From a virus (lineage: Duplodnaviria > Heunggongvirae > Uroviricota > Caudoviricetes), in IMG/VR virus record IMGVR_UViG_2627853869_000005: a DNA stretch of 28,629 nucleotides; one strand, given 5' to 3'. Below are positions 7,901 through 10,900 of this stretch, in pieces; position 1 is the stretch's first letter, and each line of letters opens with the position of its first letter. Made by a program: the position numbers.

Positions 7901-10900
7901 TCATAACATGCTTGACAACTTAATAGGGGCACTCCCCCGCTAAAGTGTTGCCCGAAAACTGGTGGCAACATCCAGCTGCATTAGGTGCAACTGACAGTGA
8001 TATCGAAATCATCAAACGTCAGTGGGGTGCGTTTTACGGTACGGATCTGGAGTTGCAACTGCGCCGCCGAGGTATCGATACAATAGTGTTATGTGGGATC
8101 TCGACCAATATCGGTGTTGAATCCACCGCCCGCAATGCCTGGGAACTTGGCTTTAATCTGGTGATTGCCGAAGACGCCTGTAGTGCCGCCAGCGCCGAGC
8201 AACACAATAACAGCATTAATCATATCTACCCGCGCATCGCCCGTGTGCGTAGCGTGGAAGAGATCCTTCACGCGTTATGATTTACATCGGTCTACCGCAA
8301 TGGTCGCATCCTAAATGGGTGCGGTTGGGGATCACCAGCCTTGAAGAGTATGCCCGCCACTTTAACTGCGTGATACGGAATTTTTAAAAATCACTAAAGA
8401 ACGCCCAAGAGCATGTTTTTTATTTAGAAGAATCAAAGCGTTGTATTTCCATGTCATATAAAAATCGGCAAAGTTCATATGTAACAAAGTGTCCCAATCA
8501 TGCCCCAAAATGCCCCACAACAAATATTTTTGCCCCATGCATGCCCCAAAAAATCACTTTCCTTCACCCTTAATACTGTTTATCCATACAGTTAAAAATG
8601 ATACTGTATACAAACACAGTGTAGAGGGACTTTTATGCGTATTGAAATCTGCATAGCCAAAGAAAAAATGACTAAAATGCCAACCGGTGCTGTGGATGCG
8701 TTAAAGGAAGAATTAACCCGACGCATCAGTAAACGTTATGACGATGTAGAGGTGATCGTAAAAGCTACCAGCAACGATGGCCTTTCTGTTACGCGCACCG
8801 CCGATAAAGATTCAGCTAAAACTTTTGTTCAGGAAACTCTGAAAGATACCTGGGAGTCTGCTGACGAGTGGTTTGTTCACTAATTAGCACGTAAAATCGG
8901 TAACGGCTGGAAATCATTCAATACTCGCACTATCGGAAGTTCACCAGCCAGCCGCGGTACGTTCTTACATACGATGTACCGCTGTTCTCTTTACGATTTA
9001 TAGCTGTACTGGTGAATTATGAGCAATCTGAATCCATGCATGACGTGTGGTGCCTGTTGTGCATTTTCCGCGTCTCTTTTTACTGGGCAGAAGCTGACGA
9101 TGCTGGCGGAAAGGTTTCGGTCAGTCTCACTGAGCAAATATCTCCTTTTCATCGCTGTATGCGCGGCACCAATCAGAAAAATCCCCGATGTGGCGCTCTT
9201 GCCGGCCCCCCCGGAGAAAACGCATATTGCTCTGTTTACAAAAACCGTCCACATGCAGGGAATTCGCAATGTCCGGCGAAAATAGCATCGTAAATGAAGC
9301 ATGTAATCGCGCACGGGAAAAATATGGATTTCCAAAAATCTGAATATTCTCCGCCGTGCAAAAATGCGAACAACATCACTTCACTAATCAACCTGACATG
9401 GCATACTTAGCACGCTAACTATGATAACAAACTAATACCCTAAAACTCATGGTTCCGGGACTGGTCGTGGTCCCGTTTTTTTATTCAGCCAGCAGGCCAT
9501 CCGACAACATAACTGCGGATCGCCTTCAGGTCTGTCAGCGCCTCAACCTCGGCTTTCATCTGCAACTGCCGTGTATTAATCTCCACTCCCTTCGCAAACA
9601 TCGCCTGCTCTGTCGCTTCACTCAGTGCCATCCATGATGCTGCCGTCATTGGCACATCATTATTATCAGCATCCGTCCGGAAAAATTTCTCTGGCAACTT
9701 AAAACAATATCCTATATATCCGGCGTCTCCGGTATGTAGAACGTGAAGTTTTTAAAATTATTTATTTACCATTTAACTAATTTTTAGATCCTGGGGTACT
9801 CCCGTCTTTTTCATTGCCTCCACGAAAGCGGAACTAACAGAACCTGACCAGTAATACTGGAACCCACTAACAACGCCCTGATAAATCATGGTTTGTGTAG
9901 CACCACCTACGTTTACGGTGATGTTAACTGCTTTACCACCGGCTAAATAAACAGCAGCTGTCGGTGTAGAGTTCGTCAAAAAGTGAGAAAGTGTAACGAC
10001 AGCCCCTACCAGCCTCCCTGATCCGCAGCTTGCGGCGTTTGTAATTGTACCTTTACTTTTTTCTTCTAAAGGCCAGTCAGCGCCAACTGCGCCCCAGTTA
10101 TCAACCTTGTCAGAGGATTTCCATTTATAGTACTCAGTTGCAATTTTACAGCCCATAGTTCGCCCAACCATTTGGCTCATCATAAAAGGTTTACTCAGTC
10201 CCAGTTTGGTTCCGGCGGCTCCCATCCACTGCTCACCTGTTTCGCTCTTAGCCGAAGAGCCTACCCATCCCGATGTTACCCCCATCTCATCTCCCCCTTC
10301 TGAATGCGTGGGGTGAGTGTCACCCCACAATTTAAATTCAGTAGAAACCAGAAACTACAACAGCTGTCGTTTACTTCTCCCGGAGTTCTTTAATCTCATG
10401 ACGAAGTGTTTTAAAGCCCTCGACTAACAATGCAATTATGCCGTTGTAGTTAAGACGCAGACGTTTTTCACCAGATATAACGTCTGCGTCTTCAGTTACC
10501 AGTTCAGGCAATGCTTTTTGTGCATCCTGAGCAATTAAACCAACCGACGTTTGCCAACCGTCGGCAGAGTACTGTATCTCGTAAAGATAACCAGTAAGTG
10601 CCTCCAGACGATCTAACGCATTATCCAGTTTTACCAGATTTCGCTTGTTGCGTTTATCCGAACGGATCTGAATATCGTTAAATGAGCCGTTTCCGGTCAC
10701 CGTCAAATTGCCATTAATACCACCATTAAAAGTTTGTGCCTGAGTCCATGTATTGGCAGTAGTAAGCAGTTCTGTTCCTTGCCCGGGGGCTCCTGTGTCT
10801 CCCTTCGGTCCCTGTGGCCCCGCCGGACCTGCTGGACCTGCTACTCCCGGATCACCTTTATCGCCTTTCGGCCCCGGCGCACCTGCCGGACCTGCTGGTC

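Follow-up and report, generated by a model that had tools for sequence, protein, structure and literature searches.

At one end of a prophage inserted in yecE, five phased heptamers of the form TG(C/T)CCCA lie together at positions 8490–8548 of a 28,629-nucleotide stretch of viral DNA (Caudoviricetes; IMG/VR record IMGVR_UViG_2627853869_000005), the whole of which is hereafter called the window. We consider it highly probable that these heptamers are the P-arm set of arm-type integrase sites in a λ-style attachment site. The repeats are clustered, occur in both arms of the attachment site, and keep their position and orientation relative to the core across relatives. A previous reading of the window made from its letters alone (the sequence-only reading) had offered arm-type recombinase sites, directionality-factor sites or an operator array as explanations. 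The first of these is borne out here, because a heptamer pair is found in the integrase-proximal arm as well and the resulting two-arm layout is kept in eight lineages.

Four exact copies of TGCCCCA stand in the same orientation, on the + strand, within 48 bp, just as the sequence-only reading had reported, and are preceded by a fifth copy with one mismatch, TGTCCCA, which that reading had overlooked (Table 1). Positions 8488–8550 read AAG TGTCCCA ATCA TGCCCCA AAA TGCCCCA CAACAAATATTTT TGCCCCA TGCA TGCCCCA AA, with start-to-start spacings of 11, 10, 20 and 11 bp. Helical phasing had been credited to three of the copies; the phasing stands, but the restriction to three does not, as all five heptamers are in helical register on about one face of the helix. 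Exact TGCCCCA occurs six times on both strands of the window, against 5.7 occurrences expected, so the signal is the clustering of the motif and not its overall enrichment. Four copies of any 7-mer within 60 bp never arose in 200 dinucleotide-preserving shuffles of the window (the maximum was three, reached in 20 shuffles), and a Poisson estimate for the TGCCCCA cluster is about 1e-7. The cluster is far beyond chance.

Identity to intact K-12 yecE stops at 8372 and phage-specific sequence begins at 8373. The array is phage sequence, lying 118–176 bp into the prophage side of this junction with its exact copies starting 128 bp in, in agreement with the roughly 130 bp estimated earlier. The same yecE fragment is annotated by RefSeq as a truncated coding sequence in O104:H4. 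That yecE is a recognised integration site is confirmed by the many deposited Shiga toxin (Stx) and other prophages annotated at this junction, by the 21-bp att defined experimentally at yecE for related phages (PMC8112680) and by the 21-bp duplication annotated as a repeat_region in a deposited yecE prophage (LC567829). Given the junction, the dinI-like gene and the tail-fibre and tail genes that follow it on the minus strand, the window shows the prophage end far from int; in λ terms, this is attR, with the P arm.

When K-12 yecE, the window and the int end of the phage PhiR49_2 are aligned, TTAACTG (8362–8368) is the sole uninterrupted stretch of more than 4 bp common to attB, attL and attR, and by its position in this alignment it is likely to be the 7-bp overlap. 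The core, CCCG(C/T)CA..TTAACTG..GTG, with half-sites judged by eye, lacks any TGYCCCA, so the arm motif is distinct from it. Site positions below are counted from the start of TTAACTG in the window and the other yecE phages, and from the middle of the att repeat or the junction in the others. The attL and attR cores of the window/PhiR49_2 lineage differ from one another at several positions (8353–8372 against 1–22 of locus L002; CCCGTCATG.. versus CCCGCCACT..), unlike the yecE Stx phages, which have the full 21-bp duplication; one such position is the T or C directly after TTAACTG, which is variable even among attL copies that are alike in other respects.

The cognate integrase and the opposite, P′ arm can be read from PhiR49_2 (PV340570), which is 99.4% identical to window positions 8371–8900 and whose record ends exactly at the junction. 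Its integrase, of 437 amino acids (aa), combines a PF12167 ‘Arm DNA-binding domain’ (residues 7–70, E 1e-23) with a PF00589 catalytic domain, and a DUF1233 excisionase gene adjoins int. The integrases of EH2201, YYZ-2008, VT2-Sakai and PHB10 likewise carry PF12167 and PF00589. By its predicted domains, the enzyme is a tyrosine recombinase with an extra N-terminal domain and belongs to the IntBPP-1 subgroup, in which this domain is predicted to consist of three strands and one helix, and whose members in an Stx2a phage, Gifsy-2 and BPP-1 are termed ‘putative integrases’ in the defining survey (PMC8138268). Read on the strand co-oriented with the window, the last codons of PhiR49_2 int contain TGTCCCAATGATGCCCCA (TGTCCCA-N4-TGCCCCA; L002 78–95), 71–82 bp from the core. 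The reconstructed attP has seven heptamers in one orientation, of which two lie toward int and five toward dinI. Nowhere in the complete 41-kb PhiR49_2 genome are heptamers paired except at the two att arms, and an unbiased 7-mer count returned TGCCCCA as the top repeat in the attP of PhiR49_2, of Gifsy-2 and of L071, an IMG/VR relative.

The constraint on the P′ pair is on the DNA and not on the protein. The two heptamers are read in two different int frames, as (T)GTC CCA (V-P) and (A)TG CCC CA(T) (M-P-H); the VT2-Sakai site, GTG CCC CAA (V-P-Q), has changed both M to V and H to Q with the heptamer intact; and the Rac and PHB10 integrases stop before their P′ sites, which fall in non-coding DNA. 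Among 80 IMG/VR relatives, 78 keep the pair with exactly 4 nucleotides between its members, in nine sequence variants. The C-terminal tail of the integrase, V/A-P-x-M/V-P-H/Q, is encoded by these heptamers, and its ‘conservation’ looks like a by-product of the constraint on the DNA site.

Comparison with the att arms of relatives and with the integrase-proximal end, the check that the sequence-only reading had suggested, showed that related phages carry the repeats at their att arms in a conserved two-arm layout. A pair at about −82/−71 faces two to five sites from about +125/+136 in eight lineages at five loci: yecE, yehV, wrbA, ttcA and the Gifsy-2 site (Table 2). Identity of the integrases to that of PhiR49_2 is 44–86% where whole proteins were compared; the Rac and Gifsy-2 integrases, compared over the N-terminal 80 aa only, are 44% and 74% identical to it, and the N-domains of the TGCCCCA lineages are 74–91% identical. 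YYZ-2008 at yehV and EH2201 at yecE have nearly identical P arms beside different cores. To judge from these sequences, the heptamers track the integrase family and neither the chromosomal target nor the neighbouring cargo genes. When the P arms of six lineages are aligned, the three shared heptamers contribute 19 invariant columns out of 21 and the remainder of the arm 15 out of 118 (Fisher p 3e-12, a value that is optimistic because the lineages are related, which makes the counts non-independent, and because MAFFT may anchor on the repeats). Most of the 80 IMG/VR loci end at the int stop codon and inform the P′ arm only; natural intact attP came from two IMG/VR relatives, L071 (complete) and L061 (partial).

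Conservation differs along the array. The proximal pair (8490 and 8501 in the window) is present in every relative examined, and the position of its second member (+139 in the window) is occupied in 8/8 lineages. The middle site (8511) is absent from VT2-Sakai, L071 and Gifsy-2. The site at 8531 is the counterpart of the distal pair in L071 (+168/+179) and, roughly, in VT2-Sakai (+156/+167).

Table 1. Features at the yecE end of the prophage. Offsets of sites are counted from the start of TTAACTG.
Feature	Position	Strand	Remarks
yecE 5′ fragment, bacterial side of the prophage junction (attR)	8277..8372	+	identical to K-12 yecE to 8372
Core (crossover) region CCCGCCACTTTAACTGCGTG	8353..8372	.	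matches the 21-bp att duplication of yecE Stx phages
Conserved core-proximal block TTTTTAAAAATCAC...AAAGAACGCCCAAGAGC	8381..8412	.	candidate accessory-protein site (Xis or host bending protein)
IHF-consensus match AATCAAAGCGTTG	8431..8443	+	between core and heptamer array; consensus match only
Putative arm-type site 1, TGTCCCA (degenerate; proximal pair)	8490..8496	+	+128; 6/7 columns invariant in the six-lineage alignment
Putative arm-type site 2, TGCCCCA (proximal pair)	8501..8507	+	+139; 7/7 columns invariant in six lineages
Putative arm-type site 3, TGCCCCA (middle site)	8511..8517	+	site at about +147 common to EH2201 and YYZ-2008; Rac +150
Putative arm-type site 4, TGCCCCA (distal pair)	8531..8537	+	6/7 columns invariant
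Putative arm-type site 5, TGCCCCA (distal pair)	8542..8548	+	also in P-EibC, L071 and VT2-Sakai
dinI promoter region, LexA boxes and dinI-like gene; separate module, outer limit of the att region	8570..8883	+	

Table 2. Positions of heptamers relative to the core in eight lineages.
Lineage	Target	P′ arm	P arm
Window / PhiR49_2	yecE	−82, −71	+128, +139, +149, +169, +180
Stx2_EH2201	yecE	−81, −70	+125, +136, +147
YYZ-2008	yehV	−81, −70	+125, +136, +147
VT2-Sakai	wrbA	−85, −74	+125, +136, +156, +167
L071 (natural intact attP, IMG/VR)	yecE-like core	−82, −71	+127, +138, +168, +179
Gifsy-2 (Salmonella)	Gifsy-2 site	−81, −70	+125, +136
Rac (K-12), motif TGCCCCW	ttcA	−78, −67	+120, +131, +150
PHB10 (Rac-like), motif TGCCCCT	ttcA-like core	2 sites just past the int stop	4 sites from 186 bp further

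The same heptamers might instead be sites of an excisionase of the DUF1233 or XisR type, which would polymerize on the phased repeats and bend the P arm in excision. We regard this as improbable, although the array, like those of Xis, Apl and Cox, consists of direct repeats in an att arm with a period of about one helical turn, which is typical of directionality-factor sites (PMC7498355). It also lies in the same arm where λ Xis binds, a DUF1233 Xis gene adjoins int in every lineage checked, and Rac XisR binds an attR fragment (PMC4632033). However, the heptamers are on both arms, with the int-proximal pair in 8/8 lineages, whereas in λ the sites shown for Xis are restricted to the P arm, in the interval from the core to the arm-type sites (PMC4880445). 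Sites of an excisionase would be expected in that interval of a single arm; the array lies at +125 to +180, and no conserved element of the P arm is farther from the core. Gel shifts with Rac XisR bear on the same question: the AttR probe was bound and the AttM probe was not (PMC4632033). We mapped the primers of these probes to 2169–2459 (AttM, 291 bp) and 2290–2583 (AttR, 294 bp) of the Rac locus L016, and three repeats homologous to the heptamers (2316–2352) lie in both. AttM thus holds all three Rac repeats yet was left unshifted, so the repeats alone are insufficient for XisR binding. The conserved block beside the core is a better Xis candidate, and its Rac counterpart falls right at one end of AttM, the probe left unbound. 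The earlier suggestion of directionality-factor sites is weakened by the presence of the motif on both arms and by this unbound fragment. A paper on the Gifsy-1 Xis aligns that protein with AlpA/Vis-type factors without giving site sequences, and so offered no guide to Xis sites.

The operator array of the sequence-only reading, or more broadly an element at which a transcription factor from phage or host acts on the SOS-controlled dinI promoter from upstream, is very unlikely. The array is indeed just upstream of a LexA-controlled dinI-like gene, as had been stated. Two LexA boxes of the form CTGT-N8-ACAG (8576–8591 and 8604–8619), the sole two in the window, and a DinI-family gene (8635–8883; PF06183, E 1e-19) follow it, its last repeat ends 21 bp upstream of the dinI −35 region (8570–8575), and activators can bind at phased repeats that precede a promoter. 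But phages that have the dinI/LexA module with unrelated integrases (mEp460, cdtI, PhiR40_1 and others) do not begin to match the window until 8566, 18 bp past the last heptamer, and mEp460 was found to have no paired heptamers. Conversely, VT2-Sakai, Rac and PHB10 carry the array without an adjacent dinI. Array and dinI are independent in both directions, and the array therefore belongs to the int/att module and not to the control of dinI. An operator would also leave the heptamers inside the 3′ end of int unexplained, and TGCCCCA is non-palindromic, unlike the LexA box. Bound integrase could nevertheless have a secondary effect on dinI. A functionless origin, in local duplication or slippage within an AT-rich spacer, is extremely improbable: slippage can create short repeats, and over the window as a whole the heptamer is about as common as expected, but against it stand the clustering far beyond chance, heptamers that stay invariant while spacers and flanks diverge across Escherichia coli and Salmonella lineages, and positions relative to the core that are kept to within a few base pairs. 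These comparative data effectively refute it.

Several points also weigh against arm-type integrase sites. The assignment of the heptamers to the integrase draws on architecture and analogy. Xis is encoded in every lineage checked (by its xisR annotation in Rac, and by scan in the others apart from Gifsy-2 and L071), so co-occurrence cannot separate integrase from excisionase. The Rac gel shift is a negative result obtained with a His-tagged protein and a slightly different motif. Both the integrase and the P′ arm were read from the near-identical PhiR49_2 and lie outside the window, so that their presence in this prophage is presumed, and the related lineages and possible anchoring of the alignment make the conservation footprint look stronger than it is. 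Solved structures, searched by sequence with the Int N-terminus and with an eight-sequence N-domain profile, returned nothing meaningful; when a profile of the N-domain was compared with the λ Int N-terminus, the probability was 0.3%, with no similarity.

For arm-type sites, the mechanism that we infer follows λ (PMC4880445). Each integrase protomer would place its N-terminal domain on one TG(C/T)CCCA heptamer, and the C-terminal domains would occupy core half-sites at about 8353–8372, the presumed place of strand exchange. Bending of the DNA that separates core and array, probably by IHF at 8431–8443 with a contribution from Xis in excision, would allow one protein to bridge both kinds of site, and the two P′ heptamers in the 3′ end of int, about 71–82 bp from the core, would complete the complex. 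Gifsy-2 has only 2+2 clear sites, equal to one per protomer of a tetramer, so the proximal pair and the P′ pair probably form the minimal set; from its presence throughout the relatives, the proximal pair is probably essential. The sites at 8511, 8531 and 8542 would then be lineage-variable extras, and may differ in use between integration and excision, like λ P1 and P2.

This arrangement resembles the λ sites P1, P2, P′1, P′2 and P′3 in having, on either side of the core and about 50–180 bp away, short repeats that differ from it in sequence (PMC4880445). Neighbouring sites are 10–11 bp apart in both systems, the integrase has a small extra N-terminal domain, a bending-protein site (here a candidate only, from a consensus match) lies between core and arm, and int abuts the arm with the short cluster. 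The differences are in the motif, TG(C/T)CCCA; in the N-domain, PF12167, which has no detectable sequence similarity to λ Int; in the number of sites, 5+2 against 2+3 in λ, with all seven in the same orientation; in the location of the P′ pair inside the int coding sequence; and in that the heptamer system is known here from sequence alone. A λ arm-type site is roughly 10 bp long. The λ and HK022 integrases share the same arm sites and differ in core specificity; similarly, the related integrases at yecE, yehV, wrbA and the Gifsy-2 site keep the arm heptamer and its geometry beside their different targets.

Rac, with IntR and XisR, is alike in its homologous N-terminal domain, which over the first 80 aa has the same invariant positions at 44% identity (compared by sequence), in its annotated xisR and in its two-arm layout of TGCCCCC/TGCCCCA at −78/−67 and TGCCCCT, TGCCCCT and TGCCCCA at +120/+131/+150. 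It differs in its target, ttcA, in its T-rich flanks, in a variable position 7 and in an integrase that ends before the P′ sites. Excision of Rac and binding of XisR to attR have been shown experimentally, in a paper that does not describe the heptamer repeats (PMC4632033).

Besides the heptamers, the P arm holds an IHF-like match and a second repeated element. WATCAANNNNTTR has a single exact match when both strands of the window are searched (0.69 expected), and this match falls in the 117-bp core-to-array interval. It is kept in P-EibC but elsewhere is conserved only in part, and agreement with the IHF consensus is no evidence of binding. The core-proximal block contains an AAGAnCGyCCArGAGC island conserved in the six aligned lineages and in Gifsy-2; its AAAAATCAC part recurs at 8459–8473 and 8549–8558, and its AAAAATC(A/G)nnnAAG-like repeat is present again at 8459–8473. 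In the window, TAAAAATCACTAAAG (8385–8399) returns as TAAAAATCGGCAAAG (8459–8473), and AAAAATCACT returns at 8549–8558. The IHF-like site lies between the first two copies, which seem to covary by lineage (CACTAAAG/CACCAAAG in L071, CGACGAAG/CGACGAAT in EH2201). The second P-arm repeat and the adjacent island may be a site for Xis or another accessory protein.

Other candidate features at the array were rejected. Small open reading frames (ORFs) over it (8451–8573, 8489–8656 and, on the minus strand, 8362–8538) are unannotated in RefSeq and phage records and were taken as spurious. A reading of the array as RNA was dropped: an Rfam scan of 8200–9100 gave only a sub-threshold CssrB match outside the array (8953–9005, minus strand; 23 bits against a gathering score of 76), probably due to chance. 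A promoter and terminator scan of 8300–9000 called nothing at the array, and the dinI promoter was likewise uncalled. The −35 hexamer of dinI (8570–8575) is TTAATA in the window and TTGACA in PhiR49_2, P-EibC, EH2201, L071 and mEp460; dinI may be more weakly expressed in this prophage.

On the bacterial side of the junction, an IS110-family element (ISEc20-like; PF01548 and PF02371) at about 6519–7944, with a transposase ORF at 6710–7906, splits yecD into 6231–6518 and 7945–8280. No complete E. coli RefSeq genome combined ISEc20 in yecD with the yecE prophage junction; none covers at least 80% of 6450–8700. Past dinI, the ORF at 9019–9285 has no Pfam match, and in O104:H4 RefSeq annotates a frameshifted pseudogene of a YkgJ-family cysteine-cluster protein over its first 90 or so bases; situated between dinI and the tail-fibre genes, it has the look of decaying cargo. 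On the minus strand, 9773–10330 encodes a protein with a Gp38-type tail-fibre adhesin N-domain, and 10371–10958 a collagen-like-repeat fibre segment with an S74 intramolecular chaperone domain. This tail-fibre tip is unlike that of PhiR49_2, whose similarity to the window stops near dinI.

The array is ordinary in kind, and arm sites are not surprising in a phage with a heterobivalent integrase, which is expected to have them. For the integrase family of Stx phages, Rac and Gifsy-2 we found no published report of an arm-site motif in the searchable literature, which misses most subscription journals, including the older papers on yecE, wrbA and yehV; only short att core sequences have been described so far for these integrases. 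Yet this subgroup moves medically important prophages, among them Stx1 and Stx2 phages at wrbA, yehV and yecE, Gifsy-2 and Rac. The heptamer geometry gives a minimal attP of about 270 bp (roughly −85 to +185) for integration vectors and excision assays, a sequence signature for finding both ends of such prophages, and concrete mutants for testing the control of Stx phage excision.

The carriers of this motif, Stx phages at wrbA, yehV and yecE, Rac-like elements and Gifsy-2, co-reside in pathogenic E. coli and Salmonella. We think it possible, though rather doubtful, that the ‘arm code’ common to this whole integrase subgroup (TGCCCCA at about −82/−71 and at least two sites from +125) lets the integrases of co-resident prophages recognise one another’s arms. 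If so, an integrase encoded by one prophage could occupy or titrate a second prophage’s attachment sites, or help in assembling them. Different prophages, Stx phages included, would then be coupled in their excision, loss or re-integration, and such cross-recognition might contribute to the prophage-in-prophage integrations described for yecE-type phages.

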